A stretch of 64,000 nt of DNA, from assembly GCA_964561145.1 (NCBI GenBank), contig CAZLNZ010000006.1, positions 1 through 64,000 of the forward strand, read 5' to 3'. Of this stretch, positions 8,528 to 53,532 are shown one piece after another. Made by a program: the position numbers and the translations under genes. The notes beneath the pieces were generated by a model. The model was given only the letters and a program-made list of their open reading frames with translations. It was not told where the DNA came from and did no database searches. Position 1 is the first letter of the stretch. Every line of letters begins with the position of its first letter. Origin of the DNA: an uncultured Christensenellaceae bacterium. GTDB taxonomy: Bacteria > Bacillota > Clostridia > Christensenellales > CAG-1252.

Positions 8528-8610
8528 ATGTATAACTTTGTTATATTATCGATTTTTTAGAAGTATTCCTGTATTTTAGAGTGCTATTTTATCATTTACT
8601 TTTTCAATAT

Positions 8611-8644: not shown

Positions 8645-8821
8645 TAGACAGTATTTTGCTTTATAGTTAAAATCTTATATCACTATTATTACTCGCACCT
8701 ATACATGTTTTCTTTATCCCTTGCATTGCATCTCACGACTGATGCCCTTGTCTTCGGCTAACAGTTCCTACTGCCAGCCTGTAGCGGACTTTCACCGCCA
8801 AGTTATTACGCGTGCCGAGTA

Positions 8822-8869
8822 CACAAGAAAAACCGCCGTTGGTTTTACTCAAAAGCGGTCAAATTTTAT
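8822..8869 (-). terminator. Rho-independent terminator for the minus-strand AlbA_2 gene.
   Basis: On the minus strand: accgcttttgagtaaaaccaacggcggt followed by tttttcttg. Confidence 0.5.
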
Positions 8870-8876
8870 ATGTTTA

Positions 8877-27409: not shown

Positions 27410-27498
27410 AATTATAAAATACATAATCAACGCAGTATAAAACATAAACGTTTATTGCGTACTAATAATTGAACAAAAACATGGAGGTTTTTAATAAT

Positions 27499-29407: not shown

Positions 29408-30877
29408 ATGAAAAAAATAAATTCGATAATATGTATTGTGCTTTTAGTAATATTGTCGGTTAGCCTATGTGCATGCGATACCGGTGAAATCGGGCTTAGT
29501 GCCTATGATATTGCGGTAAAGAATGGGTTCGTTGGAAGCGAGTCGGAGTGGCTGGCATCACTTCAAGGTAGCGATACCGGTAAATCCGCATACGAGATTG
29601 CCGTTAAGAACGGTTATGACGGCAGTGAGACCGAGTGGCTTGAATCTTTGAAGGGCAAGGACGGCTTGGATGGCGAGAACGGTAAGGACGCACCGGAGAT
29701 AACCATTACGGATATATACAATGCTATGGTGGAAAACGGTTACGAGGGTAGCTTTGTCGATTTCGTTTCAGAGTATATTGATAGTACCGTTCTTAATAAT
29801 ACTGCGGAAGCGTACGTTTCCAGAGCAGTTTTAAGTGCAGTAAGCATTTTTTCCGAGTTTAAACGTGACGTAATTACCGGCGGATGGGGTTGGAGCTATT
29901 CAAAAACCGAAGAAACCTATTACTCCGCAGGCTCGGGCGTTATTTATAAGCTTGACAAGGATGACGGTAGTGCGTATATCATTACAAATTATCACGTAGT
30001 GTACGATTCGGAAAGTAAGACAAAGAGCGGTGTCAGCGATAATATTCTCGTATACTTATACGGAAAGGAAATCGAATCGGGAGCAATGAAAGCAACCTAT
30101 GTCGGCGGTTCTCTAAATTATGACATTGCGGTACTAAGAATAGATAACAATGATATTTTGAAAAACAGTGATGCAGAAGCAGTTACTGTAGCCGACAGTA
30201 ATCATGTTGTAATCGGACAAACGGCTATAGCGATAGGAAACGCTGAAGGAGATGGCATCTCTGTAACTTCCGGTATCGTTAGCGTTGATAGTGAGAATTT
30301 ATCAATGACCGGTGCTGATGACGTGACACAAGTTACTTTTAGAGTAATGAGGGTAGACACTGCAGTAAATAGCGGTAACTCCGGAGGCGGATTATTCGAT
30401 GAGTACGGACAACTTATCGGAATAGTAAATGCAAAGATAATATCAAGTGATGTAGAGAATATCGGTTATGCAATTCCATCAAATGTTGCTATAAACGTAG
30501 CACAGAATATAATAGATAATTGTGACGGTGCAACCAATACTTGCGTAAAGAAGTGCTTGTTAGGAATTACTGTATCGATAATCGATAAGCGAGCGGAATA
30601 CGATAAAGAGGATCAACTGACCCATATCTACGACACCGTTCAGGTTCAAGAGGTTACAGCGGGATCGCTTGCTTCAGATTTGTTGAAATCAGGTGATATT
30701 TTAAAGAGCATTAGCATAAACGGTGTTAAGCATGATATCAATAGACAGTTTATAGTGGTCGATTTGATGTTAACGGCAAGAGAAGGTGATACCCTAACTC
30801 TGGTATTTGAAAGAGACGGTGTCGAGCTCAGCGGTAACTTAAAGATAACGTACTCATGCATAAGTGATGTACGCTAA
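29408..30877 (+). CDS. Trypsin-like serine protease (S1C/HtrA-like) lipoprotein. A tandem 24-aa repeat (SAY(D/E)IAVKNG..SE(S/T)EWL(A/E)SL(Q/K)G) follows the lipobox.
   Basis: Signal peptide with lipobox SLCAC. Catalytic-region motifs TNYHVV, D-I-A-V-L and GNSGGGLFD. Confidence 0.75.
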   Translation: MKKINSIICIVLLVILSVSLCACDTGEIGLSAYDIAVKNGFVGSESEWLASLQGSDTGKSAYEIAVKNGYDGSETEWLESLKGKDGLDGENGKDAPEITITDIYNAMVENGYEGSFVDFVSEYIDSTVLNNTAEAYVSRAVLSAVSIFSEFKRDVITGGWGWSYSKTEETYYSAGSGVIYKLDKDDGSAYIITNYHVVYDSESKTKSGVSDNILVYLYGKEIESGAMKATYVGGSLNYDIAVLRIDNNDILKNSDAEAVTVADSNHVVIGQTAIAIGNAEGDGISVTSGIVSVDSENLSMTGADDVTQVTFRVMRVDTAVNSGNSGGGLFDEYGQLIGIVNAKIISSDVENIGYAIPSNVAINVAQNIIDNCDGATNTCVKKCLLGITVSIIDKRAEYDKEDQLTHIYDTVQVQEVTAGSLASDLLKSGDILKSISINGVKHDINRQFIVVDLMLTAREGDTLTLVFERDGVELSGNLKITYSCISDVR

Positions 30878-30974
30878 AAGATACCCCCGTTTGTGTTTTT
30901 TTGGGAAAAACGATAGGCGTGTACTTTAAATCGATATGCGTTTATGGTCGAAATAAGAAAAAAAGAATGTCGGT

Positions 30975-31008
30975 TGAAGAAGTCTGAAAAATCAGGCTTC
31001 TTCTTTTT
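30975..31008 (+). terminator. Rho-independent terminator (12-bp stem with one G-U pair, followed by a T-run).
   Basis: gaagaagtctga-aaaa-tcaggcttcttc tttttg. Confidence 0.6.
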
Positions 31009-31251
31009 GCTCAATGTCAAATGTCGGGGCGGAGATATTTTACACTTGATCACACAGTTTAATCTTTTTAGCTAATAATACAAGCCGAAGATTTTATCGT
31101 TCGGACGAAATACTTTTTCAGTTAGGGATGCATATTGTGAATAATAATACACGAGCACCTCTTTTTTGCATAAAAAATGAATAAAAACCGATTCGTTTCG
31201 GAAAATAGCTCTAATTTTACTGTAAATTTTTACGCAAGCCCTTTTTGTTAG

Positions 31252-31281
31252 TTGACACGACTTTTAAGTATTATATATAAT
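31252..31281 (+). promoter_or_regulatory. Promoter TTGACA-N18-TATAAT for the lipoprotein gene at 31352.
   Basis: -35 at 31252-31257 and -10 at 31276-31281. Confidence 0.5.
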
Positions 31282-31351
31282 GTATTTTAGATATTTTTAT
31301 TTACGTATTATTTGTTCGTAGCTCAAACATATTCGAGCTATAGAGGAGCTT

Positions 31352-32527
31352 ATGAGAAAAAGTATTATTATTCTTTTTGTCCTAGCACTGCTTCTAACCC
31401 TTTCCGTTTTCTTTGTTGCTTGTAACGAGGATGTATCGGTCGAAGACCAAACCAAGGTTGTTTTTGAAATGGAAGGCGGGAGCTATAAGAATTGCGAAGG
31501 AAGCATTGTTTATTATTACCCTCTCAAGGAAGGAGAGGAACATCTTATTGTTGCTCCTAAAACCTTGACTGCAGGAAAGGATGATGTTACTAGAGAAGGC
31601 TTTGTGTTAAAGGGCTGGTTTAAGACGAAAGAAGAGGTTGACGGCAACGTTATTTATTCCGATGAATGGGATTTCGATAAGGATAAAATTGTTGCAGGTG
31701 AAGGGGTAACCTTGTATGCAAAATGGAAAAGCGTTGTTAGCTATACCTACAAGCTGTGTTATCGTGACGGAGATCAGGATATAGATTTGTGGTCGTATGA
31801 GGTAGAGGAGGGCGAGAGTTTCTCCGATTATTTAGATCATCGTAACGACAGAAGCGGCTATACATTTTTAAAATTTGTCGATCAAAACGGAACCGATTGG
31901 GACGAATCCTTTAAGCATCCAGGTGGAGATGAGGATGTGGAGATTAAGGTTTACGCAAGCTACATCGATGGTGAGTACGAGTTGGTTAAAACAGCTAAAG
32001 AGCTTAAGTCTGCCGCCACAAAGGGAAGAAATATCTATCTGTTGAATGATATTGATCTTGACGGTGCTTCTTTGAGTTTTAAGAAAGGATACAGTGGTAT
32101 ATTTGCAGGAAACGGATTTACCGTAAGTAACTTTGAACTAAGCTATAGTGACGGAAAATATGACCTAATAGAAGACTATGAAGATGATAGCAAGAATTCT
32201 CTTATGATTAGCCTATTTGGTGAAACTGAGAATGCAGTTATTTCTGATGTTAGCTTTGTCGATGTAAAACTTAACATTAGCACAACTAATAGCTTGATAT
32301 ACAAGATTTATGTTGCTCCTATTTCCGTAAAGGGAGGTGTATCATTGAATAATGTCAGCTTTGACGGTACTTACTCTATTAGCAAACTTCCCAAAGGATT
32401 TATTCAAGATGACGTGATAGATAGCGATAAGATAATTATTGCCGAAAATACCCCCTGGATTATAAAGGGTGATTCAAAATGTGAAAACGGCTCGTTCTCC
32501 TTTGTTTTGGAGAATGAGGAAGAATAA
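31352..32527 (+). CDS. Hypothetical lipoprotein (391 aa).
   Basis: Signal peptide plus lipobox FVAC. No recognised domain. Confidence 0.6.
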   Translation: MRKSIIILFVLALLLTLSVFFVACNEDVSVEDQTKVVFEMEGGSYKNCEGSIVYYYPLKEGEEHLIVAPKTLTAGKDDVTREGFVLKGWFKTKEEVDGNVIYSDEWDFDKDKIVAGEGVTLYAKWKSVVSYTYKLCYRDGDQDIDLWSYEVEEGESFSDYLDHRNDRSGYTFLKFVDQNGTDWDESFKHPGGDEDVEIKVYASYIDGEYELVKTAKELKSAATKGRNIYLLNDIDLDGASLSFKKGYSGIFAGNGFTVSNFELSYSDGKYDLIEDYEDDSKNSLMISLFGETENAVISDVSFVDVKLNISTTNSLIYKIYVAPISVKGGVSLNNVSFDGTYSISKLPKGFIQDDVIDSDKIIIAENTPWIIKGDSKCENGSFSFVLENEEE

Positions 32528-32560
32528 TTGATTTAAACAGAATTGTAAAGGAGATATAGT

Positions 32561-35173
32561 ATGAAAGGAAAAAGATTACACGTTGTTTTAGTAGCAATAG
32601 TAGCATTGGTAATCTTTGCTTCGGTTATTGTTTTAACCGCATGTAAGGATGTTAATACCGATAAAACCTATTTTGATAACGAAAACGATCCGTTGGTATT
32701 TTCAACTCAAGAGGTTGATAAGGTATTTAACCCATTCTTCTCAACTTCTGCTACCGATAGCAATGTGGTCGGAATGACCCAGATATCGATGCTTTCGAAT
32801 GATAAAGAGGGTGTTGTGGCATACGGTGATGACGAAGCTGTTGTTGTTAAAGATTTAGAAAAGGTGACCGAAGGAGAGGGCGAAGAACAAACCACGACCT
32901 ACAAATTTGTATTGAAAAACAATATCAAATTCTCTAACAATTCCCCTTTGACAATTAAGGACGTATTATTCAACCTATATGTCTATCTTGATCCCGCTTA
33001 TACCGGAAGCAGTACTATTTATTCAACAGATATCGTTGGATTGAAAGAGTACCGCACCCAAGAGTCCTCCGATGATGAGCAAGATAACTTTAAAAATCAA
33101 TTCAAAATCGAGGCAGAAGCACAGATAGATGCTCTTGTTTCTGCTTGTTCCGAGATACTCGATGAGGATAGCACAATAAGTGAAGAGGGTTTCCTTGAGG
33201 CACTTCAAGAGTATGTTTCCTTGAGCGATGTATATAAGGATGTCGTTGTAAACTATAATAAGGCAATCGAACTCTTTAAGGAGGAATTGAACAGCGATTA
33301 TTCTAATAGCATCGACTCTTATGAGGATATGACCTTTAAGGATAAAGAGGGCAATATTTATAAGAACCTACTAACTACCGATGTCGAAGTTTTCTTGTAC
33401 AACGAAGGCTATATTACTTGGAATAAAAAGGATGCTAAAATCGAATCGTCATTAACCACTCCCGGACAAGAGGCTTCCTTGAAAAACTGGACAAAGGAGC
33501 AAGCAATCGATATCGTGCTTAAGGATATGATTCCCGGCAAAATGGACCAAGTCATTTCATATTGGATGACAGGAACTTCTTTGAGCGAGTATCTTGAAAA
33601 CAAGGCAATGGAGGAGTACTTTAAGAACGCAGATAGAGCTTATCCGAACATTTCCGGTATTAAGTTTGCAAACAGAACCGAAGCTGTTACCGTAAACGAT
33701 GTTGTTTATGATGTTCCCACCTATGCAGAGGACGGCAGTGTTTCCCAAGGCAATGAGGTTTTGACAATTCAAATTCACAAGGTTGACCCTAAAGCAATTT
33801 GGAACTTTGCTTTTGCAGTAGCTCCTATGTATTACTATTCCGATGAAGCACATATCGCCGCCTTCGATTATGAAAGCAATTTCGGCGTAGAATATGCTTC
33901 TCAGAGCTTCATGAACAATGTTGTTAAAAATTCCGATAAGATAGGTGTCCCCGTTGGTGCAGGTCCCTATGCTGCCTCAAAGAGTTCCGGTGGAATAACC
34001 AATGTTGCGGCAGGTGACTTCTATGATAAGGGTGTTATTTATTTCGAGCGTAATCCTTATTATGTAATGGGTGCTGCAAAGATTAAAAAGGTACGTTTCC
34101 AAGTAGTATCTTCTACATCTATACTTAACTCTTTATATGTCGGCGAAATCGATTATGCAGAGCCTAATGCTAAACCTGAGACCATTGCCGAACTCAACGG
34201 AAAGCGTGATCAAGGAATCGGAAATAAGAGCATACGTACCTCCGGTTACGGATATATCGGAATCAATGCAGGTAAGGTTCCCAGTCTTGCTGTCAGAAAG
34301 GTTATTATGTACTGTATCAACACCCAAGAGTGTGTTGATTACTATAAGACAACCGCAAAGGCTATTTATCGTTCAATGAGTATGTCCAACTGGGCATATC
34401 CCGAGGGCTGTACCTCTTACTATCCTTATATCGCAGGAAAGATACCTACAAATCTTAATGTCGTTGATCCCGAATATAAGGCGTATGTAAATAAGCTCGG
34501 CAAGAAAGCAGGTGATTATTTGACAGAGGCTGAGCAAAAAGCGTTCCTTGTAGGAATGATTGAAGACGCAGGTTATACCCTTAATGCAAACGATATTTAT
34601 CAAAAGGGTAACAGCAAATTGGAGTACACCTTTACTATTGCGGGCGAGGAAACAGACCACCCTGCATACAATGCAATGGTTCATGCAGGCGAACTCCTCA
34701 ATAAGATTGGCTTTAACATTACAGTTAGCACCGATGCACAAGCATTAAAGAAGCTTTCAACGGGTAGCTTAACCGTATGGGCTGCGGCTTGGGGTTCAAC
34801 TATCGATCCCGATATGTATCAAGTATATCATAAGGATTCCAATGCGACCTCGGTACTTAACTGGGGATATAAGCAGATCTTAAGAGATGAAAATACATAT
34901 TCCGAAGAGATTGAGATTATCAATGAATTGTCCGAATTGATTGAAAAGGCACGTGAAACGGATGATCAAAAAACGAGAAAGAATTTGTATTCAAAGGCAC
35001 TGGATCTTGTAATGCAGCTTGCCGTGGAACTTCCCACCTATCAAAGAGATGACTTGTTTGCGTTCAATACAAACAAGATAGACGTATCTACCCTTACCCC
35101 GGACAGCGAAACCTCTCCTTATAAGGGCTTAACCAGCGATATGCACTTAATCTCTTTGAACGAAGAAAAATAA
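32561..35173 (+). CDS. oppA: Family-5 (Opp/Dpp-type) ABC transporter substrate-binding lipoprotein. At 870 aa it is unusually large.
   Basis: Lipobox LTAC and SBP_bac_5-like core (GVPVGAGPY, FERNPYY). RBS AAAGGAG. Confidence 0.7.
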   Translation: MKGKRLHVVLVAIVALVIFASVIVLTACKDVNTDKTYFDNENDPLVFSTQEVDKVFNPFFSTSATDSNVVGMTQISMLSNDKEGVVAYGDDEAVVVKDLEKVTEGEGEEQTTTYKFVLKNNIKFSNNSPLTIKDVLFNLYVYLDPAYTGSSTIYSTDIVGLKEYRTQESSDDEQDNFKNQFKIEAEAQIDALVSACSEILDEDSTISEEGFLEALQEYVSLSDVYKDVVVNYNKAIELFKEELNSDYSNSIDSYEDMTFKDKEGNIYKNLLTTDVEVFLYNEGYITWNKKDAKIESSLTTPGQEASLKNWTKEQAIDIVLKDMIPGKMDQVISYWMTGTSLSEYLENKAMEEYFKNADRAYPNISGIKFANRTEAVTVNDVVYDVPTYAEDGSVSQGNEVLTIQIHKVDPKAIWNFAFAVAPMYYYSDEAHIAAFDYESNFGVEYASQSFMNNVVKNSDKIGVPVGAGPYAASKSSGGITNVAAGDFYDKGVIYFERNPYYVMGAAKIKKVRFQVVSSTSILNSLYVGEIDYAEPNAKPETIAELNGKRDQGIGNKSIRTSGYGYIGINAGKVPSLAVRKVIMYCINTQECVDYYKTTAKAIYRSMSMSNWAYPEGCTSYYPYIAGKIPTNLNVVDPEYKAYVNKLGKKAGDYLTEAEQKAFLVGMIEDAGYTLNANDIYQKGNSKLEYTFTIAGEETDHPAYNAMVHAGELLNKIGFNITVSTDAQALKKLSTGSLTVWAAAWGSTIDPDMYQVYHKDSNATSVLNWGYKQILRDENTYSEEIEIINELSELIEKARETDDQKTRKNLYSKALDLVMQLAVELPTYQRDDLFAFNTNKIDVSTLTPDSETSPYKGLTSDMHLISLNEEK

Positions 35174-35246
35174 AGCTTTCAATTTTAATCTACAGATAAT
35201 TTACGCCCTTTCTCTGTTTTGAGAAGGGGCGAAAGGGTTTACAGCA

Positions 35247-36254
35247 ATGTTTAAATATATAGTTAAAAGAATACTGATATCCGTTATAGTATTGATAGGT
35301 GTATCTCTTATAATTTACACAATGGTAAGACTTATGCCTACAGACTATGTGGATACCAAATATGCAAGTCAGCTTCAAAACGGTTCCATGTCACAAGAGG
35401 ATGTTGATCATTTCAAGGAGCTATACGGAATAGGAGATAATTCCTTTAAAGGAATTGTCGGGGGCTACTTTAAGTGGTTCGGCAATATGTGCAAGGGTGA
35501 TCTAGGTTTGTCTTTTAAGTATGAGAAGCCGGTTGGTCAGGTTATAACGGAGAATATGTGGATATCCTTTGCGATAGCTTTTATTGCCACCATTCTTCAA
35601 TTTTTAATTGCGATTCCTTTGGGTATATCCTCTGCAACCCACCAATATTCGGCAAGAGATTATACTGTTACCGTATTTACAATGATCGGATTATCCCTTC
35701 CTACATATTTCTTTGCGGCAATAGTAATAAAGATATTTGCAGTCGATTTGGGAATACTTCCGTCAAACGGCTTAATTTCATCTACTGCGAACTATACGAA
35801 GGATTTCTTGGGTACTCTAACAAAGCTCGGAGATATGGCGGAGCACTTGGTTTTACCCATCTTCGTAAGTGTTATTTTGTCAATTGGCGGCTTGATGCGT
35901 TATACGAGAACTAATACCTTAGAGGTATTAAGTGCAGATTACATACGAACCGCAAGAGCAAAGGGTTTGTCTGAAAAAACAGTAATCTACAAGCATGCCT
36001 TTAGAAACACCTTGATTCCCTTGGCAACCCTTTTAGCGGGAACCCTACCTTCACTTTTCGGAGGAATGATGATAACTGAGGAGGTTTTTGCGATAGACGG
36101 TATAGGAAGACTTGCATATAAGGCACTAATGGAGGGAGATATTCCCTTTGTTATGGGTTATAATATGTTCCTTGCAATACTGACGGTAATAGGAACTTTG
36201 CTTTCGGATATAATGTATTCCATTGTAGATCCGAGGGTTAAGATAACGAAGTAG
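35247..36254 (+). CDS. oppB: Oligopeptide ABC transporter permease (OppB/DppB type).
   Basis: Classic N-terminus MFKYIVKRILISVIVLIGVSLIIY and an EAA-like motif region. Confidence 0.85.
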   Translation: MFKYIVKRILISVIVLIGVSLIIYTMVRLMPTDYVDTKYASQLQNGSMSQEDVDHFKELYGIGDNSFKGIVGGYFKWFGNMCKGDLGLSFKYEKPVGQVITENMWISFAIAFIATILQFLIAIPLGISSATHQYSARDYTVTVFTMIGLSLPTYFFAAIVIKIFAVDLGILPSNGLISSTANYTKDFLGTLTKLGDMAEHLVLPIFVSVILSIGGLMRYTRTNTLEVLSADYIRTARAKGLSEKTVIYKHAFRNTLIPLATLLAGTLPSLFGGMMITEEVFAIDGIGRLAYKALMEGDIPFVMGYNMFLAILTVIGTLLSDIMYSIVDPRVKITK

Positions 36255-36261
36255 GTGGATT

Positions 36262-37380
36262 ATGGAAGATAACAATAAAAATGTACAAATAAATGAGAAC
36301 ATCCTTCCCGACGAAGAAACCATTATCGAAAACAGCGTTTTAAAGGAAGAGGAACTTTCCACGCAAGTACCGATTGCAGGGCAAGAAGATGAAGAGGAAA
36401 AGGAAACATATCAGCAAATGAGTCCTGTAAGACTTGTTGCAAGAAGATTCTTTCGTTCAAAGCTTTCCATTGTAGGTATATGTATGGTAGTTTTTTTGTT
36501 CGCTTTTGCAATTTTAGGTCCTGTCATTTATACTCGATGGACAGAGGAGGAGGTTGACAGAACCACCGTTACCTCTGTAGTAAAGAACGTATACGAGTAT
36601 GAATTCGACGGGAAAACAATAACCATCAATGAAGAGGTTGTTCATCAGTCTGATATTAACGCTTATGCCGATCCTTCTTTGGATCACCTCTTAGGAACGG
36701 ACAACTTCGGACGAGATGTTTTCGTTCGCTTAATGTATGGTGGCAGAATTTCCTTGATGATAGGTTTCATTGTAGTAATTCTGGAAACCGTCATAGGCAT
36801 TATCCTAGGCGGACTGGCGGGATATTTTGGAAAATGGGTTGATCAGCTTATAATGCGTATAGTTGATATTTTTAACTGTATTCCTACATTGCCGATTTTA
36901 TTAATAGCATCCGCATTGATCGATTCTTGGAACATTACTGCAGATCAACGTATTTATCTATTAATGGCGATAATCACTCTCTTTAGTTGGAGCGGAGTTG
37001 CAAGAATGGTACGTGGTCAGATTTTGATGTTAAGAGAACAGGATTATATAACCGCAACCGAGGTAATGGGAATTCCTACTTGGAGAAAGATTTTTATGCA
37101 TCTTATTCCAAATGTAATGCCCCAATTGATAGTTAGCATGACCTTAGGTTTGGGTAGCGTAATACTCTACGAGTCTACCTTGAGTTATTTAGGTTTAGGC
37201 GTACAACTTCCCAAGGCGGCTTGGGGTACAATGATAGCAACCGCCAAGGATCCGCAGGTCTTGACCTACCATTTAAATATGTGGCTACCGGCAGGTATAT
37301 TGATTGTAATTGCGGTTTTGGGATTTAACTTCATAGGTGACGGACTGCGTGATGCTATGGACCCCAAGGCAAAGAAATAG
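36262..37380 (+). CDS. oppC: Oligopeptide ABC transporter permease (OppC/DppC type) with an acidic N-terminal extension.
   Basis: Six TM segments, permease signature, and conserved C-terminus DGLRDAMDPK. Confidence 0.85.
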   Translation: MEDNNKNVQINENILPDEETIIENSVLKEEELSTQVPIAGQEDEEEKETYQQMSPVRLVARRFFRSKLSIVGICMVVFLFAFAILGPVIYTRWTEEEVDRTTVTSVVKNVYEYEFDGKTITINEEVVHQSDINAYADPSLDHLLGTDNFGRDVFVRLMYGGRISLMIGFIVVILETVIGIILGGLAGYFGKWVDQLIMRIVDIFNCIPTLPILLIASALIDSWNITADQRIYLLMAIITLFSWSGVARMVRGQILMLREQDYITATEVMGIPTWRKIFMHLIPNVMPQLIVSMTLGLGSVILYESTLSYLGLGVQLPKAAWGTMIATAKDPQVLTYHLNMWLPAGILIVIAVLGFNFIGDGLRDAMDPKAKK

Positions 37381-37387
37381 GTGGCTT

Positions 37388-38590: not shown

Positions 38591-39897
38591 AAAAGGATTT
38601 AAGCATTATTTTCAAACGCTTCGATGAAGAATGTCCGCAAATGCCGATTGAAATTGTCGACCCCGGAACAGAGTCGATTCTTCAAAAGGGACAAGCTCAA
38701 GCGGCGGAAAAGGGCAATGTTATTCTCGAGGTTAGGCACTTGAAAAAGCACTTTCCGATAAAGACCAACTTTTTCGGAAAACCGATAAAGTTTTTGAAAG
38801 CTGTCGACGATGTAAGTTTTTCCGTTCCCGAGGGAAGTACTTTGGGTATTGTCGGTGAATCGGGTTGCGGTAAAACCACGTTAGGTAGAACCATCTTAAA
38901 GCTTCACGATATAACGGGTGGCGAGATAATCTACGACGGTAACGATATTACAAATCTTTCAAGAGCGGAGATGACAAAATATCGCACACAGATACAGCTT
39001 GTTTTTCAGGATCCATATTCCAGTTTACCTCCTCGTATGACCATTGGAAGTATAATTAGTGAAGCGGTTAAGGTTCATAAGATTGTACCTAAGGATCAGG
39101 TCAATGATTATGTGTTGAATATAATGAAGCGTTGTGGCTTACAAACGCAGTATTATGACAGATACCCTCACGAGTTTTCGGGTGGTCAAAGGCAGCGTAT
39201 TTGTATTGCCAGAGCTTTAGCGGTTAATCCCAGACTTGTTATTTGTGACGAACCTGTTTCTGCACTCGACGTAAGTATTCAAGCACAAATAATAAACTTA
39301 TTGAAGGACCTTCAAAACAATCTTAAGCTCACGTATTTGTTTATTTCTCACGATCTTTCTGTAGTAAAGTATATCACCGATAGAATATTGGTAATGTACC
39401 TTGGAAATATGATGGAGATAGGCGATACGGATGATATTTTTGAAAATCCCCTTCACCCCTATACAAAGGCGCTGTTTTCCGCAGTACCGGTACCCGATCC
39501 CGATGTGAAGTCGAATAGGATTATTTTACAAGGAGATATTCCCTCTCCCGCAAATCCTCCAAAGGGTTGTAAATTCCATACACGTTGCGATTCTTGTATG
39601 AGCGTTTGTAAGCTTCGCAATCCAAAGTATATTGAGGCTTCACCCAATCATTTTGTTGCTTGTCACCTTTACGATAAGGAAGTAATGGAAAGAGTCGGAG
39701 AGTATGACGAAATTTATGATAAATATAAATTCGAGGTCGAGGAGTACGAGGAAAGAAAGCGAAACTTTGACAACGAAAGGAAAGAGGCTCTTGACGAAAT
39801 CAATATTTTCAAAAAACTTAAAAGATTTATAAAGAAGGAAAATCAAGAGGCATACTCCGGGGATAACTCTGATTCCGAAAAGAGCAATGAAGAATAA
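38587..39897 (+). CDS. oppF: Oligopeptide ABC transporter ATP-binding protein (OppF type) with an acidic/KE-rich C-terminal tail.
   Basis: Walker A motif GESGCGKTT, signature FSGGQRQR and Walker B motif ICDEPVSALD. Its start overlaps the oppD stop (ATGA). Confidence 0.85.
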   Translation: MKKDLSIIFKRFDEECPQMPIEIVDPGTESILQKGQAQAAEKGNVILEVRHLKKHFPIKTNFFGKPIKFLKAVDDVSFSVPEGSTLGIVGESGCGKTTLGRTILKLHDITGGEIIYDGNDITNLSRAEMTKYRTQIQLVFQDPYSSLPPRMTIGSIISEAVKVHKIVPKDQVNDYVLNIMKRCGLQTQYYDRYPHEFSGGQRQRICIARALAVNPRLVICDEPVSALDVSIQAQIINLLKDLQNNLKLTYLFISHDLSVVKYITDRILVMYLGNMMEIGDTDDIFENPLHPYTKALFSAVPVPDPDVKSNRIILQGDIPSPANPPKGCKFHTRCDSCMSVCKLRNPKYIEASPNHFVACHLYDKEVMERVGEYDEIYDKYKFEVEEYEERKRNFDNERKEALDEINIFKKLKRFIKKENQEAYSGDNSDSEKSNEE

Positions 39898-40150
39898 AAA
39901 GGATAAAAAAAGAAAAGCCGCATATCACGATGACGGACACACCGTATACAATATGGATAATGTCGTAAGACAAAATCCCTTCGGACCCGATGATATAGGC
40001 AATGATAGCAAAAAAGAAAATGTTGGCTTGAGCAGAAAAGAACGCTTCGCCGCAATTAGAGCGGCATTTCAGGTCTATTTCCCGGTATTACTCGGCGTAC
40101 TTATCTGCTTTGGCTTGACGGCTTTATTACTAGTTTTTTGGTTAAAATAA
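39887..40150 (+). CDS. Small hypothetical protein with a C-terminal TM helix. It overlaps the oppF stop and directly precedes the S8 protease gene.
   Basis: 87-aa ORF with a basic N-terminus and the C-terminal helix VYFPVLLGVLICFGLTALLLVFWLK. No strong RBS. Confidence 0.35.
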   Translation: MKNKKDKKRKAAYHDDGHTVYNMDNVVRQNPFGPDDIGNDSKKENVGLSRKERFAAIRAAFQVYFPVLLGVLICFGLTALLLVFWLK

Positions 40151-40160
40151 AGGAGACTGA

Positions 40161-43100
40161 ATGAAATCTACTAGAAGAACAAACAAACTTACCTTAATCG
40201 TTTGTGCCATTGTATTGGCAACGATGTGTATAACGTTGTTTGCTTGTAGCTCTCAGATTGTTACCCCCTCCGACTCTAATGGTGGGATAAAGAATGAAAA
40301 TCTGCAAGAGTTACAGATACTCAAAAGCGAGTTAAAGCTTACGCAAGAGCAAACAATGTCTCAAATAAAAGCAGATTATCTACTTGAGAACAACGGATAC
40401 AAGGACGATGATGAAATAGTAGTAATGGTATCCCTTCAGGAGGAAGCTTTACTAGATGCTTTTAACGATAGATATTATAGGGAATACAAGACGGTTGCGG
40501 AATTCGCTGAAAGTCAAGTGGGCATAGATATGCTTGCTAAGATTAAATCGGAGCAAAATTCTTTTGTCGACTCCTTAAAAAGAGCGGGCTATACTCTTGA
40601 GCTTGTGAATTCCTACAATACCATTATCAACGCCGTTGCGATAGAAATTCCCTATGGCAGTATGAAGTCTATAGAAGGACTTGGCGGTGTAAAGAACGTG
40701 ATAATGTCAGAAACCTATAATCGTCCGCAAGAAGCTAAAGGTGAGAGCTACAGTGCCGTTGAGAATATCGTTGATATCTACGAGACGGGTATTTATAAAT
40801 CCGACTGTGTTGATTTTAAGGGCAGAGGAACTTCTGTTGCTATCTTAGACTCCGGTTTCGATCTTGCGCACAGCGTATTCAGTGTAGATAATATTGACGA
40901 TATCTCCGAAGATCAATTAATGATAAAGGCTCAAGACATAAAGGACGTTTTAGCCTATACAAAGGCGGCTACATTTACTCAAGATTTAGATTTTTCCGAT
41001 GTTTATTATAGCACCAAAATCCCATTCTCCTATGACTATGCGGATAAGGATCCCGATGTTAACCCCTATGATTCAGAGCATGGGACTCACGTTGCGGGCA
41101 TAATTGCAGGAAAAGATGATGTTATCACGGGCATCGCTATAGAAACGCAGCTCGTATTACTGAAGGTATTCCCGGACCTCGATGATGGTGGAAAAACAGA
41201 GGATATAACAGCAGCACTGGAGGATGCAGTATTACTCGGTGTCGATGCTATTAATATGAGCTTAGGCTCCTCCTGCGGTTTTGCGAGAGAGGAAGACGGA
41301 AACGCTATCAATGATATTTATGATAAGATTAAGAAAGCAGGTATCAGTTTAATAACCGCTGCAAGCAATAGCTATAGCTCCGGTTACGGTGGAGACCAAG
41401 GCAACACTAACTTGGTAACCAATCCCGATTCTGCAACTGTAGGCTCTCCTTCGACCTATGAGGCAGCATTGTCGGTTGCATCCATTTCCGGAACGAAGAG
41501 CAAGTATCTCGTTGCAAACGGCTCTGAAGTTGTTTTCTTTAACGAGTCTAATGCTGTAACGGGTGATCCTAACGACTTTTTCCAAGAGCTGTTCGAGGAC
41601 TTGAACGTAACCAATCAAAAGGTTACTTTAAATTATGTTACGGTTCCCGGTGTAGGTAAGGCAATAAACTATAACGGAATCGACGTTAAGGGTAAGATTG
41701 CACTCGTTCGTCGTGGCGATAATACCTTTGAAGAAAAGGCGTTGAACGCAAAAGCGGCAGGAGCCATTGCTTGTATTATATACAATAACATAGATGGTGA
41801 CATTTTAATGAGTATGGGTAAAACCGACCATATTCCTACCATTTCAATCTCTAAGGATGACGGAAGTAAACTTGCAGAAAAGTCGGAAGGGACAATCGTT
41901 ATCGATATAGCCAATCAAGCGGGTCCCTTTATGTCCGATTTCTCTAGCTGGGGACCCTTGCCCTCATTGGAGCTTAAACCGGAGATTACCGCCCACGGCG
42001 GAAATATTAAATCCTCTGTGCCCAGCGGTGGCTATGACGAATTGTCGGGAACCTCTATGGCAACCCCAAACCTTTGCGGTATAGTTGTGTTAATAAGACA
42101 ATATCTAAAGGAGAAATATCCCGAAATATCTGCTCCTGAGCTATCAAAGCTAACGAATCAGATGCTAATGAGTACTGCAACTATTATTTTGAACGAAGAG
42201 GGTAATCCCTATTCTCCTCGTAAACAGGGTGCAGGACTTGCAAGTATTGCAAACGTTGTAAATACGAAGGCATATCTATCTGTAGACGGTATTGACAGAC
42301 CTAAGCTTGATCTTCTTGACGATCCTACTCGTACTGGTGTATATACAATGAAGTTTAACGTTCATAACATGGGCGATACTTCCGTTGTATATGATATTGA
42401 CCTAATTGGCATGACGGAAAGCGTGTCGGCATATGAAAAGACTCACGTTGCCGAAAAAGCTACAATTCTATCCAACAATTTCACTCTTAGCGTAGAAAAC
42501 GGCGAACTCAAAGGTAATACCTTGACCGTAAAAGGCGGAGAGACTGCAAAAATAACTTTGGTTTACACACTTACCGATGCGGATAAGAATATGATGGATG
42601 AGTTATTCCCATATGGGATGTATGTAGAAGGCTTTGTCAAGTTGATTGATAATAGCGAGGAGAGTGCGGTTAATCTCAATATCCCCTTCCTTGCATTCTA
42701 TGGTGATTGGACGCAAGCTCCCATGTTTGATAAGACATATTATGAGGTTGAAAGTGAAGCACACGATCAAGCAATCGATGATGATGACAAGATTAAAGCC
42801 GATTACTATGCAACGACCCCCTATGGTTCGTACTATTATAACTACATAATTCCTCTAGGAACATATTTATATGATGTAGATACTACCAAGTATGATGAAA
42901 TTCCCGCAACTGAAGAGCACATTGCTATTTCGAACGTACTTGGTACCATTGACGGAATATCTGCAGTATACGCAGGTCTTTTGCGTAATGCAAAGACAAT
43001 GACCTATTCTATAGTCGACACTGTTACGGGAGAGGTTGCATATGAAGAGGTGTTTTATAATGCAAGAAAAGCCTATTCTTACGGCGGCACTCCTATTCCC

Positions 43101-46100
43101 AATTACGAGTACCTAAAACTTAAATCAACAGAGCTTGGATTAATCAACAACAGAACCTACACCTTTAGCATGGTAGGAAGACTTGATTATGGTGATGGTG
43201 GCGAAGCTAACAATGTCAGAAGTGAATTCACCTTTGACTTCTATTTCGATGACGAGGCTCCTGTAATAAAGTCGGCGACCTATGAAAAGGTATATGATAA
43301 AACCCTGAAAAAGGATCGTTATTATATTAACTTGGTGGTTTATGATAATCATTATGTACAATCTATCACGCCTATAATATTTACTTCAAGCTCAAGCTAT
43401 ACCTTCTTGACGGAGAATCCTATTCCCGTATACAGCGAAAAGGGTGCCAATAACAAGGTTCGCTTCGAGATAACGGATTATTTGAACGATATTTATGCAG
43501 ATGCAATTATTACCAGCGGTCTAGCATTTTCTATTGACGATTATGCTTTGAACTCTAATATATATATTTGTCAGCTTCCCGGAACAAGGGGTGATTTTAA
43601 ATTTACAAGTGACGGAACCATGGATGGAGCCGATCTCATAATTCTCAGTGTAGAAGAGGGTGAGCTTGTAGACTTGACAAGATATCTTGCAACAAGCGAT
43701 AGTACCGTTGACGAGAATAAGGATTATCTTAAATATTTGGTTTGGACCTCCTCGAATGAAAAGGTTATTGAGGTTAAGGAGGGTATTCTTAAAGCTAATA
43801 AGGCTGGAAGAGCTACCGTTACCGTTCAAGAACAGATGGAGCTTAAGCAAGCCATATTGATTATCAACGTCAAGAGCAAGCAGGATGAAGTAGCAGAAGC
43901 CTCGGATGCTGTAATAGGTAATGTTGACGAGGGTAAAATAAAGGAAATTCGCTTTGCATATTTTGATACGCTCTTTGCCTATTCGAGGGCAGCACAAACC
44001 AGTGAAATCGGTCAAACAGGGGATAGGAAATTCATCTCTGCAATGAATGGAATCTCCTTCTACCCCGGTGAGAAGATACAGCTCTTCTATGATATAGAGC
44101 CGTGGTATGTTGCCGACAACTATAAAGTAAGTTTCGAGTCAACAAACCCGTTGGTTGCTACGGTAAATGAAGAGGGCGAAGTAACAGGGCTTAAAGAGGG
44201 CACAACCTCTATTGTCTTAAGAGTAGAGGGTTCTTCGTTGATGGCAAGGGTTAGAATTACCATCAAGAATGAGTTTGTAATTGAAAATCGTAGCCTTATT
44301 GCCTACAAGGGATTGGGTGGCGATGTTGTAATACCCGACGATGAAGGTATACTTTATATCGGTGCCTATGCCTTCTGTTTGTATACGACTGATAATACTA
44401 TAGAGCTTACAGAGGAGGACTATGATGCAAATAAAATACCTGCAACAAATACCTCTGTTACCTCAGTGGTCATTCCCAACGGTGTTGAGGATATTCAAAA
44501 ATACGCATTCTATAATTGCTCGGGTTTACGTTCTGTAGTTATTCCCGATACGGTTAAGTATATAAGGGAATGTGCATTCTATAATGATGTAAAACTTGAA
44601 GAAATAGATATTAAGAATGTTCAAGTCATAGGAAGGGAAGCCTTCAAGGGTTGTGTTAAGCTTGATAATGTAGATTTATCTAAGGTTTATGCAATAGGTT
44701 CAAAAGCCTTTGACGGTTGTTCCTCATTGTCTAAAGCAGACTTGTCATCATTGCGCAACACGGGCGATACCGCATTCCGCCATTGTACAAACTTGAAGGA
44801 ATTAATAATCAACGAGCATACAAAACTTGCACAAGCAATGTTTGTTGATATCGGAGTTGAAGAGGTTACAATTTATAATAAAGGAACCTATATTCCCGCT
44901 TTCTTATTTGCGAACTGTGTCAATTTGAAAAAAGTCATCCTAAAAAATGATCTCGAAGGTATTCAAAACGGTGCATTCTCGGGTTGCGAGGCATTGACAG
45001 ATTTTGCAATAGAGGGCGAGCTTAAGTCGATAGGTGAGCAAGCTTTTTATAATGATGTTGCCCTTAAAACTTTTATCCTTCCCGATTGTGATGTGAGTAT
45101 CGATGTTTATGCTTTTTATAAATGTGAAAGCCTAAGCGAGCTTGTATTTAAGGCAAATACCCACCTGTCCTCGACAAACGGCGCAATGTTCCAAGACACC
45201 GCATTGAGCAGCTTTACAGTAAGTGAAGACAATATGTGGTATTCCTCTTCCGACAACGGATTATTAATTTCCAAGGACGGCAAATCGATAATTCTTGCAT
45301 CCATTGGCATCGACTTCGGAGATCTTGTAATCGACGAGGGAGTAGAATATATTGAGGACGGAGCTTTCTCCGGTGCTACAATAAACAGTTTAACCATAAC
45401 TAATAATAAAACGATAATAGGCGATTATGCTTTTGCCAATTGTTTGACGTTAAGTAAAATAGTATTCCCCGACAAAAAGGGCGTAGAACTTGGTAAACAC
45501 TCCTTCAACGGTGCCGAAAAGCTTGTTGAGGTGGAGAATTCCGACAAGGTTCTTAAAATGGATGATTACGCTTTCGCAAACACTTCTCTTAAGGAAATAG
45601 TTCTGGGAGCAAACGGCGAATTCGGTGAAGGTGCTTTCTTCCAATCCTCCTTGGAACAAGTTACAATCGGAGCTAATTCCAAATTCGGAATGGGTGCCTT
45701 CCAAAAGTGCTTATCCTTAATAACTGTAAATATGCCGGAGCAAGGCGGAGTTAGGTTCGGTCAATCCTGTTTTGCAAACGATGCGAATCTTAAGAACATC
45801 GATCTGACAAAAATAAGCACTGTTATTTCCAATGAAGCTTTCTATGGTTGTTCTTCGTTGTATGAGGCAAATATTCCGCATGTAACAAAAATAGGCTCCT
45901 ATGCTTTTGCCGATTGCAGTTCTTTGACAAAAGTAACCCTTGAAAACGTACAAGTAATAGGTGAGGGTGCTTTCGGTCGTTATGAGCAGTATAGCCAAGC
46001 ACCGAGAATTGAGAAGATCGATCTTCCTGAAACCTTAACTTCTTTAGGTGACGGTGCCTTTATCGGCTGTTCTGCATTGCAAAGCGTTGTTGTTCCCGAT

Positions 46101-47624
46101 TCGGTTGTTGATTTCGGTGATTTCATGTTTACATACTGTGAAAGCCTTACCTCGGCAAAGCTGGGTTCGGGAATCAAAAATATAGGACAATATACTTTCT
46201 ATGGCTGTTCCCTGCTTTCGAAGGTTGAGTTTAGCGGAAAGGAAATCGGAGAGCTTGCCTTCTCTCAAACGAGCTCATTAACCTATGTTGATTTATCCAA
46301 TGTCGAAAAAATCGGGTGGGGTGCTTTTGAGTCGAGTGGATTAAGCGGTGATGTGATCGCCGATAAACTGACAGTGCTCGATGATTATGCCTTCCAAAAT
46401 GCTAATATTAAATCCTTTAGCGGAGCGAGCTTGGCATCTATCGGTGTATCTGCTTTCCAGAACAATGCGGAACTTTCGGATTTCACTTTCTCAAAGAATT
46501 TGGAAAGTATCGGAACAGAGGCATTTTTAGGATGCAAGTCCCTAAAGACTTTCTATACACCGGAGCATTCTGCAACCGGTACAATAAATGATTTTGCATA
46601 TCTGAACAACGGAGTACTGTATACAAAAATGAAGTCGGGATATATGCAATTGACCTCGGTTCCTGCAGGACGTGAAGCACAGACCTTGATTGTCGACGAA
46701 GGAACTTATCGTATAGATAGATATGCCGGTAACGAGAATGAATATATAAAGGTAATAACTCTTCCCGATAGCTTAAGACTTATCGGAAACTATGCTTTTT
46801 ATGGATACAGTAAACTGAGCACCGTCGAGTTTAAATCTGTTACAGCACCTGCCCTTGAGGATTACTATAATAGTAGCTCCGAACTTGCCGAAACCGATCC
46901 CGGTTATGATTTACTACATAATAGCTTCGACCTCTTCGGATTTGAATTATACTACTATAACTTTATTGATCTAGCAGGCAAGAAGGAACCAATTTCGATG
47001 GTATTGCCGTCTAATGCCGACATTACAGGCTACGATAGTATTGTGTACGAAGCTTATTTTGGTAGTGTTGATAAGGCAATGAGAAGCAATTATGTTGCAA
47101 TGGAGAAGAACATGATTAACTTTATTTCCTATGCAAAGAAGGTTCAAGCTCTAAATGTAATTGGTCTTACAAGTGAAAATCTTATCAATAATGCAGTGGC
47201 TTGCTATAAGGCATTAACTCAAGATCCGACGTCATATGGAATCGATCCCGAGCTTTGGGAAGGATATGTCGAGAGCGTAACAAACGCAAAAGCAACTCTT
47301 ACAAAGCTTAAGATTGAGGATGCCGGACAAAAGGTAATCGCTGTTCAAGAAAGAATCGATTCCCTTCCCACCGAGTTTAAGGTTGAGGATTTGGAGTTAT
47401 TGAGATCTGTTGCAGCGGACATCAATGCTTTACTTCCTAAGGATAAGGCACTGTTAGATACCTCGAGATACGATCTATTGATAGCTTCTTATGATAGTTA
47501 CAGAGAGAGCGTAGTGCAAGAGGTAAGACCGATAATCAATTCCTTCGATAACATCGTGGCGGGTATTGCCGTTATGGTTTCCGTACTGGCAATAGGACTT
47601 GCTTTTGCCATTAAGGCGATATAA
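40161..47624 (+). CDS. Giant (2487 aa) cell-envelope subtilisin-like S8 serine peptidase lipoprotein. Domain order: N-terminal inhibitor_I9-like region, S8 catalytic domain with an inserted PA domain, Fn/Ig-like and Big_2 domains, a ~800-aa BspA-type leucine-rich-repeat region, a coiled-coil segment, and a C-terminal TM anchor.
   Basis: Lipobox LFAC. Catalytic Asp (VAILDSGFD), His (HGTHVAGIIAG) and Ser (GTSMATPNLCG). PA-domain motif GKIALVRRGDNTFEEKALNAKAAGA. LRR units such as IPDTVKYIRECAFYNDVKLEEIDI. Terminal TM helix IVAGIAVMVSVLAIGLAFAIKAI. RBS AAAGGAGA. Confidence 0.85.
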   Translation: MKSTRRTNKLTLIVCAIVLATMCITLFACSSQIVTPSDSNGGIKNENLQELQILKSELKLTQEQTMSQIKADYLLENNGYKDDDEIVVMVSLQEEALLDAFNDRYYREYKTVAEFAESQVGIDMLAKIKSEQNSFVDSLKRAGYTLELVNSYNTIINAVAIEIPYGSMKSIEGLGGVKNVIMSETYNRPQEAKGESYSAVENIVDIYETGIYKSDCVDFKGRGTSVAILDSGFDLAHSVFSVDNIDDISEDQLMIKAQDIKDVLAYTKAATFTQDLDFSDVYYSTKIPFSYDYADKDPDVNPYDSEHGTHVAGIIAGKDDVITGIAIETQLVLLKVFPDLDDGGKTEDITAALEDAVLLGVDAINMSLGSSCGFAREEDGNAINDIYDKIKKAGISLITAASNSYSSGYGGDQGNTNLVTNPDSATVGSPSTYEAALSVASISGTKSKYLVANGSEVVFFNESNAVTGDPNDFFQELFEDLNVTNQKVTLNYVTVPGVGKAINYNGIDVKGKIALVRRGDNTFEEKALNAKAAGAIACIIYNNIDGDILMSMGKTDHIPTISISKDDGSKLAEKSEGTIVIDIANQAGPFMSDFSSWGPLPSLELKPEITAHGGNIKSSVPSGGYDELSGTSMATPNLCGIVVLIRQYLKEKYPEISAPELSKLTNQMLMSTATIILNEEGNPYSPRKQGAGLASIANVVNTKAYLSVDGIDRPKLDLLDDPTRTGVYTMKFNVHNMGDTSVVYDIDLIGMTESVSAYEKTHVAEKATILSNNFTLSVENGELKGNTLTVKGGETAKITLVYTLTDADKNMMDELFPYGMYVEGFVKLIDNSEESAVNLNIPFLAFYGDWTQAPMFDKTYYEVESEAHDQAIDDDDKIKADYYATTPYGSYYYNYIIPLGTYLYDVDTTKYDEIPATEEHIAISNVLGTIDGISAVYAGLLRNAKTMTYSIVDTVTGEVAYEEVFYNARKAYSYGGTPIPNYEYLKLKSTELGLINNRTYTFSMVGRLDYGDGGEANNVRSEFTFDFYFDDEAPVIKSATYEKVYDKTLKKDRYYINLVVYDNHYVQSITPIIFTSSSSYTFLTENPIPVYSEKGANNKVRFEITDYLNDIYADAIITSGLAFSIDDYALNSNIYICQLPGTRGDFKFTSDGTMDGADLIILSVEEGELVDLTRYLATSDSTVDENKDYLKYLVWTSSNEKVIEVKEGILKANKAGRATVTVQEQMELKQAILIINVKSKQDEVAEASDAVIGNVDEGKIKEIRFAYFDTLFAYSRAAQTSEIGQTGDRKFISAMNGISFYPGEKIQLFYDIEPWYVADNYKVSFESTNPLVATVNEEGEVTGLKEGTTSIVLRVEGSSLMARVRITIKNEFVIENRSLIAYKGLGGDVVIPDDEGILYIGAYAFCLYTTDNTIELTEEDYDANKIPATNTSVTSVVIPNGVEDIQKYAFYNCSGLRSVVIPDTVKYIRECAFYNDVKLEEIDIKNVQVIGREAFKGCVKLDNVDLSKVYAIGSKAFDGCSSLSKADLSSLRNTGDTAFRHCTNLKELIINEHTKLAQAMFVDIGVEEVTIYNKGTYIPAFLFANCVNLKKVILKNDLEGIQNGAFSGCEALTDFAIEGELKSIGEQAFYNDVALKTFILPDCDVSIDVYAFYKCESLSELVFKANTHLSSTNGAMFQDTALSSFTVSEDNMWYSSSDNGLLISKDGKSIILASIGIDFGDLVIDEGVEYIEDGAFSGATINSLTITNNKTIIGDYAFANCLTLSKIVFPDKKGVELGKHSFNGAEKLVEVENSDKVLKMDDYAFANTSLKEIVLGANGEFGEGAFFQSSLEQVTIGANSKFGMGAFQKCLSLITVNMPEQGGVRFGQSCFANDANLKNIDLTKISTVISNEAFYGCSSLYEANIPHVTKIGSYAFADCSSLTKVTLENVQVIGEGAFGRYEQYSQAPRIEKIDLPETLTSLGDGAFIGCSALQSVVVPDSVVDFGDFMFTYCESLTSAKLGSGIKNIGQYTFYGCSLLSKVEFSGKEIGELAFSQTSSLTYVDLSNVEKIGWGAFESSGLSGDVIADKLTVLDDYAFQNANIKSFSGASLASIGVSAFQNNAELSDFTFSKNLESIGTEAFLGCKSLKTFYTPEHSATGTINDFAYLNNGVLYTKMKSGYMQLTSVPAGREAQTLIVDEGTYRIDRYAGNENEYIKVITLPDSLRLIGNYAFYGYSKLSTVEFKSVTAPALEDYYNSSSELAETDPGYDLLHNSFDLFGFELYYYNFIDLAGKKEPISMVLPSNADITGYDSIVYEAYFGSVDKAMRSNYVAMEKNMINFISYAKKVQALNVIGLTSENLINNAVACYKALTQDPTSYGIDPELWEGYVESVTNAKATLTKLKIEDAGQKVIAVQERIDSLPTEFKVEDLELLRSVAADINALLPKDKALLDTSRYDLLIASYDSYRESVVQEVRPIINSFDNIVAGIAVMVSVLAIGLAFAIKAI

Positions 47625-47634
47625 GGAGTAGCGT

Positions 47635-48186: not shown

Positions 48187-48196
48187 GGAGGGTGAA

Positions 48197-53444: not shown

Positions 53445-53532
53445 GATTTAACAATAAAAAACACCCTTCTAATAAGCATATTCCCCGAAAAGAAAGGGGA
53501 GTATGCTTATTGCAAATTATAAGGACCTATAT

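Follow-up and report, generated by a model that had tools for sequence, protein, structure and literature searches.

In lactococci, prtP/prtM and opp form separate transcription units that are often plasmid-borne, and in Bacteroidota the polysaccharide utilisation loci (PULs) bring surface capture, extracellular depolymerisation and product import together in one locus. Plasmid-encoded lactocepin and plasmid lac/opp operons have been described separately (PMC6458302). Here we analysed 64,000 nucleotides of contig CAZLNZ010000006.1 (assembly GCA_964561145.1; the whole stretch is called the window) from an uncultured Christensenellaceae bacterium, in which a gene for a 2487-residue subtilase of family S8 (hereafter S8) lies in one co-directional string with the genes of an oligopeptide permease (Opp)-type importer. 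On balance, gene content and gene order make it probable that this string works as one operon in which proteolysis outside the cell is combined with peptide uptake. The logic of such a system is unsurprising; its conserved architecture appears new and is testable.

The linkage of protease and importer was surveyed among relatives of the S8 catalytic region, taking one genome per species, searching 10-kb flanks with the window proteins and mapping the open reading frames (ORFs). The linkage count took in S8 orthologues that share at least 40% identity and have flanks long enough to judge, and loci with short flanks (L009, L014, L018, L024 and L025 in our numbering of related loci) were left out. 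Of the 17 species-level genomes whose flanks sufficed, 15 have S8 beside a co-directional operon for a long OppA, in one of two gene orders: either lp391-OppABCDF-S8, as in the window (L005, L006 and L020), or S8-lp391like-OppABC... (L002, L007, L008, L010-L013, L015-L017, L019 and L022). lp391, a lipoprotein gene, is always directly upstream of OppA. The S8-linked long OppA proteins are 36-87% identical over ~870-940 residues and are accompanied by OppB/C(/D/F) on the same strand, and near distant S8 genes (at most 35% identity; Bacillus, Actinomycetes, Chloroflexi and others) OppA, OppB and OppC were found in 0 of ~55 loci. When the search started from OppA, all five of the long-contig homologues looked up (64-68% identity) had an S8 gene in the cluster, encoding 2464-2599 residues with S8-PA-fn3_5-LRR_5 architecture, four in the order of the window and one (L090) in the other, and with unrelated outer flanks (M28 peptidase, SASA esterase, gyrB-parC-cmk-der-gpsA, pheST or rpsD/feoAB). 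Since the pair is retained despite rearrangement and unrelated flanks, it bears a classic signature of functional coupling, and the integration of an S8 protease with an Opp-type importer, proposed by an earlier sequence-only reading of this DNA, is thereby upheld in many species. The carriers are ~20 uncultured gut Clostridia of the Christensenellaceae, Oscillospiraceae (Faecousia) and Pumilibacteraceae (NCBI taxonomy), and the nearest species-level relative of the window is an uncultured Christensenellaceae metagenome-assembled genome (MAG) with 85-87% amino-acid identity. As a separate observation, a 693-residue Big_14 + Serpin gene lies ~7 kb upstream of the S8-Opp cluster in L008 (819..2900; Oscillospiraceae MAG SVRD01000004.1), and this serpin could be an inhibitor that controls the S8 enzyme or protects against it.

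The plus strand from 29.4 kb onward, as far as the end of the window, carries genes for secreted proteins and lipoproteins without interruption (Table 1). Within 31352..50548, where lp391 is the first of 11 genes and lp783 the last, packing is tight: gaps range from -11 to 73 nt, 73 nt being the largest. OppD and OppF overlap by 4 nt and OppF and sm87 by 11 nt, and a ribosome-binding site (RBS) precedes 10 of the 11 genes, sm87 being the sole exception. The S8 gene begins 10 nt after the end of sm87 behind an AGGAG RBS, and two lipoprotein genes follow it with a 10-nt gap at each step. The intrinsic terminator that marks the upstream boundary has a minimum free energy of -17.3 kcal/mol (z -4.44), equalled in stability by 0 of 200 shuffles, and the predicted promoter ahead of lp391 is the region's sole 12/12 match; before the lp391 orthologues of L001, L006 and L086, sites that resemble a promoter but for 1-2 mismatches stand at similar distances. 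A plus-strand terminator scan of 31004-58000 returned nothing comparable to the upstream terminator, only short weak stems (5-9 pairs, 3 G-C), and at the tight gene junctions not even weak stems were listed. With no comparable terminator and no further 12/12 promoter match between the genes, apparent translational coupling and conserved co-directional adjacency, an operon is predicted, presumably co-transcribed as a polycistronic unit of ~19 kb from the promoter at 31252 to at least 50548.

The sequence-only reading had placed the genes that it named correctly, all on the plus strand, and these genes are real and intact, although its list omitted lp391 and sm87. Its statement that only short gaps separate them holds from lp391 onward (at most 73 nt) but not at the HtrA end, where the gap measures 474 nt and contains the terminator and the promoter. 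The supposed 263-nt gap between OppF and S8 is occupied by the conserved 87-residue sm87 ORF, and the locus does not end at 47624, as had been proposed, but continues as a tight string through at least two more lipoprotein genes.

Table 1. Features of the protease-importer region, in window coordinates.
Feature	Coordinates	Strand	Characteristics
HtrA/DegP-like serine protease lipoprotein	29408..30877	+	ORF opens at 29381; Trypsin_2 1.1e-21, weak PDZ
Intrinsic terminator	30976..31003	+	12-bp stem and T-run; ends the HtrA unit, upstream boundary
Predicted sigma-70-type promoter	31252..31281	+	TTGACA-18-TATAAT; 70 nt before lp391
lp391, 391-aa lipoprotein	31352..32527	+	Two InlB-B-repeat/Flg_new-like domains and a right-handed beta-helix
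Long OppA, 870-aa family-5 solute-binding lipoprotein	32561..35173	+	SBP_bac_5 (PF00496) 3e-28, above cut-off
OppB-type permease	35247..36254	+	BPD_transp_1 8e-34, BPD_transp_1_N
OppC-type permease	36262..37380	+	BPD_transp_1 1.2e-32, OppC_N 4.3e-9
OppD-type ATPase	37388..38590	+	ABC_tran, oligo_HPY
OppF-type ATPase	38587..39897	+	ABC_tran 2.4e-33, oligo_HPY 3.1e-20; overlaps OppD by 4 nt
sm87, 87-aa single-pass membrane protein	39887..40150	+	Overlaps OppF by 11 nt
S8 protease, cell-envelope type, 2487 aa	40161..47624	+	Peptidase_S8 3.4e-40, PA, fn3_5, Big_2, LRR_5
BspA-type leucine-rich repeat (LRR) region of S8 (aa ~1395-2225, ~830 aa)	44343..46835	+	LRR_5 1.3e-147, 9 stretches
C-terminal transmembrane (TM) helix of S8 (aa 2465-2484)	47553..47612	+	Followed by just K-A-I; mean Kyte-Doolittle 2.63 over 19 aa
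lp183, 183-aa lipoprotein	47635..48186	+	RBS, 10-nt gap after S8; lineage-restricted accessory
lp783, 783-aa lipoprotein	48197..50548	+	10-nt gap; closes the tight string

The S8 protein opens with a signal/lipobox segment (residues 1-29), followed by a weak I9-like propeptide (~84-190) and a catalytic domain (221-692) into which a PA domain (500-571, 6.2e-18) is inserted between N403 and S632; an fn3_5 domain (728-844, 9e-10), Big_2 domains, the LRR_5 region and the C-terminal TM helix come after it. Pfam thus bears out the earlier description of a 2487-residue S8 subtilase with a PA domain. The catalytic motifs DSGFD (D230), HGTHVAG (H307), AASN (N403) and GTSMATP (630-636; S632) are canonical, and each of D230, H307, N403 and S632 is either invariant or conserved to at least 90% across an alignment of 35 homologues, so that the catalytic set, whose integrity was a premise of the earlier proposal, is intact. 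Among solved structures the closest are C5a peptidase (7edd, 5e-70, residues 218-884), to which the catalytic residues align residue by residue, and SpyCEP (5xyr, 1e-64); the match to the NCBIfam model SGO_0316_fam (7e-80) falls under the family cut-off. The BspA-type LRR region, previously put at ~800 residues, is present at slightly greater length, has LRR motifs over residues ~1400-2213 with 14 'IGxxAF' motifs between residues 1400 and 2208, and matches a HupY/LrrG adhesin model below threshold.

A single ORF of 2400-2950 residues in 11 relatives is the usual form of S8. In L001 the gene contains a frameshift (~13805-13811) and in L002 an in-frame stop (14612-14614) inside an LRR motif. Both breaks fall at almost the same point, where the LRR region starts; they may reflect errors of assembly, pseudogenes or a recurrent route to an unanchored protease. 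We also considered that S8 is a fusion of two genes, which we rejected because the split in L001 is a frameshift and the stop in L002 has no downstream signal peptide. Likewise, the appearance of a fast-evolving LRR region, with 38% identity to L001, proved to be an artefact of the choice of high-scoring segment pair: identity to L001 is 74% in the C-terminal part and 86% in the N-terminal part.

How S8 is held at the cell surface had been read as a double anchor, with LPXTG replaced by an N-terminal lipobox plus a C-terminal TM helix. Both elements are present in the window S8, where the lipobox reads LFAC with the cysteine at residue 29, but only the C-terminal helix is conserved. Among 11 full-length relatives, nine show a TM helix at the C-terminus followed by a basic stop-transfer tail (in some an acidic tail comes after it), and in the last 60 residues of L016 and L017 such a helix is not evident. 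A lipobox is plausible in L006 and is represented in L019 by one marginal regex match, and most of the relatives have an ordinary signal peptide. No conserved LPXTG was found in the window S8 or in the 11 relatives, L006 alone having an IPNTG-like string, which upholds the substitution of a TM helix for LPXTG; a hidden sortase signal was also considered and discarded, there being no conserved LPXTG before the helix. Between Cys29 and the catalytic Asp lie ~190 residues that include the weak I9-like segment. If this propeptide is cleaved, as in other subtilases, the N-terminal lipid anchor would be lost with it, and the C-terminal helix would be the functional replacement of LPXTG. The double anchor is thus probably not a design feature of S8.

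The five Opp-type components are complete, with family-specific Pfam domains all above curated cut-offs, in agreement with the sequence-only reading, which had named an 870-residue OppA-like lipoprotein together with OppBCDF. Both ATPases have a Walker A motif GESGCGKS/T and the signature SGG(M/Q)RQR. The OppD ORF opens at a GTG at 37337, the likelier start being the ATG at 37388 with an RBS ('aggtgg') ahead of it. In the oligo_HPY regions of OppD (38330..38560) and OppF (39500..39640) we also observed cysteine clusters of the form C-x5-6-C-x2-C-x3-C ... C-H-L-Y, possibly an Fe-S site, and OppF, at 436 residues, is extended at its N- and C-termini. Long OppA scores 74.5 bits against the NCBIfam model Opp4A (cut-off 650). 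A profile built from 36 homologues gave weak matches in the PDB (2e-8 to 1e-2), mostly to peptide binders (9p48 OppA, 3drf L. lactis OppA, 8upi and DppA), with EppA also among them. When its AlphaFold2 (AF2) model was searched with Foldseek, it showed the fold of cluster-C solute-binding proteins, with probability 1.0 to many family-5 proteins; NikZ and NikA were the top neighbours, accompanied by AppA (1xoc), OppA (3drj/3drg), EppA, DppA, GbpA and binders of sialic acid and pectin. The extra length of long OppA is a helical insertion at residues ~171-356, modelled with a predicted local distance difference test (pLDDT) score of 85-90.

The importer and protease genes are accompanied by further conserved partners. 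An identical lp391 occurs in the Logan assembly of SRR10277277. The N-terminus of sm87 is basic and its C-terminal part forms a TM helix; the protein also has a DDGHT(I/V)YNMD motif and an amphipathic (R/K)KER-A-I(R/K)AA stretch, and neither Pfam nor NCBIfam has a family that it matches. Homologues with 40-79% identity follow OppF in L001, L085, L086, L089 and L090, and in L090 this position is kept though S8 lies at the opposite end of the operon. A further sm87 homologue lies 4 kb from the S8 orthologue of L003 (5720..5983), which has no nearby Opp operon, and sm87 may therefore belong with the protease rather than with the transporter.

Downstream of S8, lp183 has an orthologue in L001 (55% identical), and lp783 has orthologues in L001 (75%) and L006 (48%). 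Homology of lp183 to a 217-residue lipoprotein that follows S8 in L090 was considered; the match is marginal (E 0.034) and is not claimed. Beyond the tight string, the plus strand encodes lipoproteins of 890 (50772..53444) and 1265 residues (the pair spanning 50772..57300), the former a distant paralogue of lp783 (22% identity, E 9e-8) whose gene is preceded by a 223-nt gap with a promoter-like site at 50652-50681. Conservation of the 183-, 783-, 890- and 1265-residue lipoproteins does not extend past the closest relatives, L001 and L006, and none of the four has a significant Pfam or NCBIfam match. A still longer lipoprotein ORF on the same strand (57445..64000), of more than 2185 residues and running off the window, extends the surface-protein island downstream of the operon; it contains many copies of a Cys-rich module (HxFGxW...CxxCGKxF) as well as 'FxGW' repeats of Flg_new-like type.

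On the reading that we favour, the S8 pre-pro-enzyme would be exported, and removal of its I9-like propeptide would take the lineage-specific N-terminal lipid anchor with it. The mature and presumably active protease would then be held by the conserved C-terminal TM helix, its Fn3/Big_2/LRR region may form a long stalk and a substrate-binding surface, and the beta-helix lipoprotein lp391 would probably aid retention of substrate, presumably protein, at the surface. The oligopeptides released would be caught by the 870-residue binding lipoprotein and imported by OppBCDF, with sm87 as a putative accessory subunit of the importer.

Several results weigh against this scheme. The candidate propeptide matches Inhibitor_I9 at an E of just 0.053 (residues ~128-186); one homologue (P0034) has a precomputed PF05922 (I9) match. 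The unit encodes no intracellular peptidase and no maturase of PrtM/PrsA type, lp391 resembles adhesins and polysaccharide lyases and nothing peptide-related, and two of the 17 S8 orthologues, those of L003 and L021, have no Opp genes nearby. The binding protein raises further objections: a PDB search with the single sequence found no relative, the protein being too divergent for ligand assignment; the overall AF2 model is of moderate quality (pLDDT 67); and its Foldseek neighbours bind mixed ligands (nickel, peptide, EDTA, glutathione, sialic acid and pectin) at 10-19% identity. Ligand assignment by these routes was given up, the single-sequence search yielding nothing, the profile weak matches and the structural comparison a mixture. 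The peptide specificity of long OppA, which we infer from the tendency of its family and from the linkage to the protease, is the weakest link of the model. Nor do regulatory signals help: the CodY box AATTTTCWGAAAATT, allowing at most 3 mismatches, has 11 matches in the window versus 9.3 expected, and two of seven orthologous upstream regions match against a background of 11%, which is not above chance. CodY-type nitrogen control was dropped as a candidate on these grounds, and searches with Rfam and ARAGORN found no riboswitch, T-box or tRNA signals in the window.

The resemblance of S8 to C5a peptidase and SpyCEP, which are immune-evasion proteases, raises the possibility that the enzyme mainly cleaves specific proteins of the host or of competitors (for instance immunoglobulins, chemokines, complement or mucin backbones), that the LRR region and lp391 serve it as targeting adhesins, and that Opp is linked only for product salvage or for an unrelated reason. 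The sub-threshold HupY/LrrG match, the origin of all carriers in animal guts and the serpin gene near S8 in L008 fit this proposal as well, but a purely defensive protease has no obvious need for a five-component importer kept through rearrangement and across families, and streptococcal genes for cell-envelope proteases (CEPs) are, to our knowledge, not linked to Opp; we consider it unlikely. The doubt may instead be directed at the importer: on the basis that family 5 contains many non-peptide binders and that NikZ and NikA head the Foldseek list, the transporter could take up metal chelates or glycan fragments, for example, and the cluster would be a co-inherited island of surface proteins without a substrate-product relation. 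The polysaccharide-lyase-like beta-helix of lp391 agrees with such a view, as do the LRR_5, Flg_new and GLUG surface proteins that often neighbour the cluster in relatives. However, the pairing of S8 with long OppA stays while these other neighbours all change, the profile matches in the PDB are mostly peptide binders, and the ATPases and a permease carry oligo_HPY and OppC_N, respectively, which leaves this explanation decidedly improbable.

S8 proteases and Opp also serve as the extracellular and uptake components of RRNPP-type signalling, and in Bacillus subtilisin, Epr and Vpr process Phr peptides that Opp imports. A corresponding role here, in which S8 would mature secreted pro-peptide pheromones for re-import by Opp, strikes us as very remote: the unit showed neither a gene for a receptor or regulator nor one for a short pro-peptide, a 2487-residue enzyme with an 830-residue LRR region is out of scale for pheromone trimming, and sm87, with its C-terminal TM helix, has no signal peptide. 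None of these alternatives explains the persistent pairing of S8 with Opp as simply as an operon for extracellular proteolysis and peptide uptake.

The HtrA-like gene upstream, which had been counted as part of the locus, is a separate unit because the terminator (30976-31003) and the promoter (31252-31281) intervene. Its product contains the motifs NYHVV, DIAVL and GNSGGG and matches the NCBIfam model degP_htrA_DO below threshold. No HtrA match adjoins the cluster in any related locus searched with the window proteins: the flanks upstream of the cluster differ in L085-L087 and L089, HtrA is absent there and in L006, and the single contig that has it beside the cluster is identical in sequence and comes from the same organism. 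With terminator, promoter and lack of adjacency in relatives taken together, we excluded HtrA as a member of the system. At its N-terminus (29408..29800), 2-3 tandem repeats of 'SAY(D/E)IAVKNG(F/Y)xGSExEWLxSL(Q/K)G' precede the trypsin-like domain, a motif that is found in phage tail-fibre proteins and is unusual on an HtrA.

Elsewhere in the window, the minus strand encodes a 206-residue collagen-like protein (25943..26563) with GPQ/GAT triplet repeats, two copies of CCPNRR in its Cys-rich N-terminus and a globular domain at the C-terminal end; its resemblance to the BclA/exosporium type is a hint of a spore-former. A pair of genes on the plus strand (26813..28920) for an NfeD-like membrane protein and a 483-residue flotillin/band-7-like protein is followed by a terminator at 28946-28970. 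The stretch 4046..10211 encodes a pair of AAA_14 ATPases, of which one carries DUF4143, together with a Schlafen AlbA_2/HATPase_c_4/HTH protein, a set frequent in mobile and defence islands.

Gut protein fermentation is usually credited to few cultured taxa, and the genetic basis of proteolysis is poorly described in the abundant uncultured Christensenellales and Oscillospirales. If real, the protease-importer operon would be a genomic marker of proteolytic capacity in metagenomes and a compact experimental handle, with one promoter leading to one phenotype, and it would add long OppA with its helical insertion, lp391 and sm87 as new components to characterise. More tentatively, with a confidence that falls somewhat short of even, we propose a 'protein utilisation locus' of uncultured gut Clostridia, in which one operon would combine a capture module (LRR stalk and lp391) with a giant subtilase held by its TM anchor and with sm87 and a long OppA of novel structure, the helical insertion of which is lid-like. 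Were this so, it would represent a monoderm, protein-directed counterpart of the Bacteroidota PULs, possibly aimed at host glycoproteins. A full-text literature search, incomplete in its journal coverage, brought up no earlier account of an operon of this kind. Within the literature searched, the following appear undescribed: the integration of these genes in a single operon, anchoring by a TM helix, the LRR stalk, long OppA, the conserved partners lp391 and sm87, and the occurrence of the cluster among uncultured gut Clostridia.

Compared with known systems, the window S8 has the catalytic set, inserted PA and Fn3-like domains of cell-envelope S8 proteases and lacks their LPXTG. Streptococcal CEPs (ScpA/ScpB, SpyCEP/ScpC and the SGO_0316 family) provide its best solved-structure matches and share the catalytic-PA-Fn3 order; they differ in being only ~30% identical, LPXTG-anchored, ~1100-1650 residues long and without an LRR region, and they cleave specific host factors and, as far as we know, are not encoded with Opp. 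The importer corresponds to the Opp/Dpp/App systems (TC 3.A.1.5; L. lactis OppA and B. subtilis AppA) in its SBP_bac_5 lipoprotein, two BPD_transp_1 permeases and two oligo_HPY ATPases, but its binding protein is ~330 residues longer and sm87 is appended to the operon. Bacteroidota PULs are a conceptual analogue only, their proteins being unrelated: here the cell is a monoderm, an ATP-binding cassette (ABC) importer stands in place of SusC/D, and protein is the presumed substrate. The lactococcal PrtP-Opp system likewise has a surface-tethered S8 with inserted PA and Fn3-like domains that feeds a five-component Opp, and the window has the intact D/H/N/S set and the binding lipoprotein. It departs from that system in that protease and opp lie in one co-directional gene string, in a C-terminal TM anchor where PrtP has LPXTG, in the lack of a PrtM-like peptidyl-prolyl isomerase (rotamase) domain in any gene of the unit, in a stalk formed by the ~830-residue BspA-type LRR region where PrtP has B, H and W domains, and in an 870-residue binding protein with a helical insertion and the extra partners lp391 and sm87. 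By analogy, the window locus would nonetheless follow, in its function, the lactococcal PrtP-Opp scheme.

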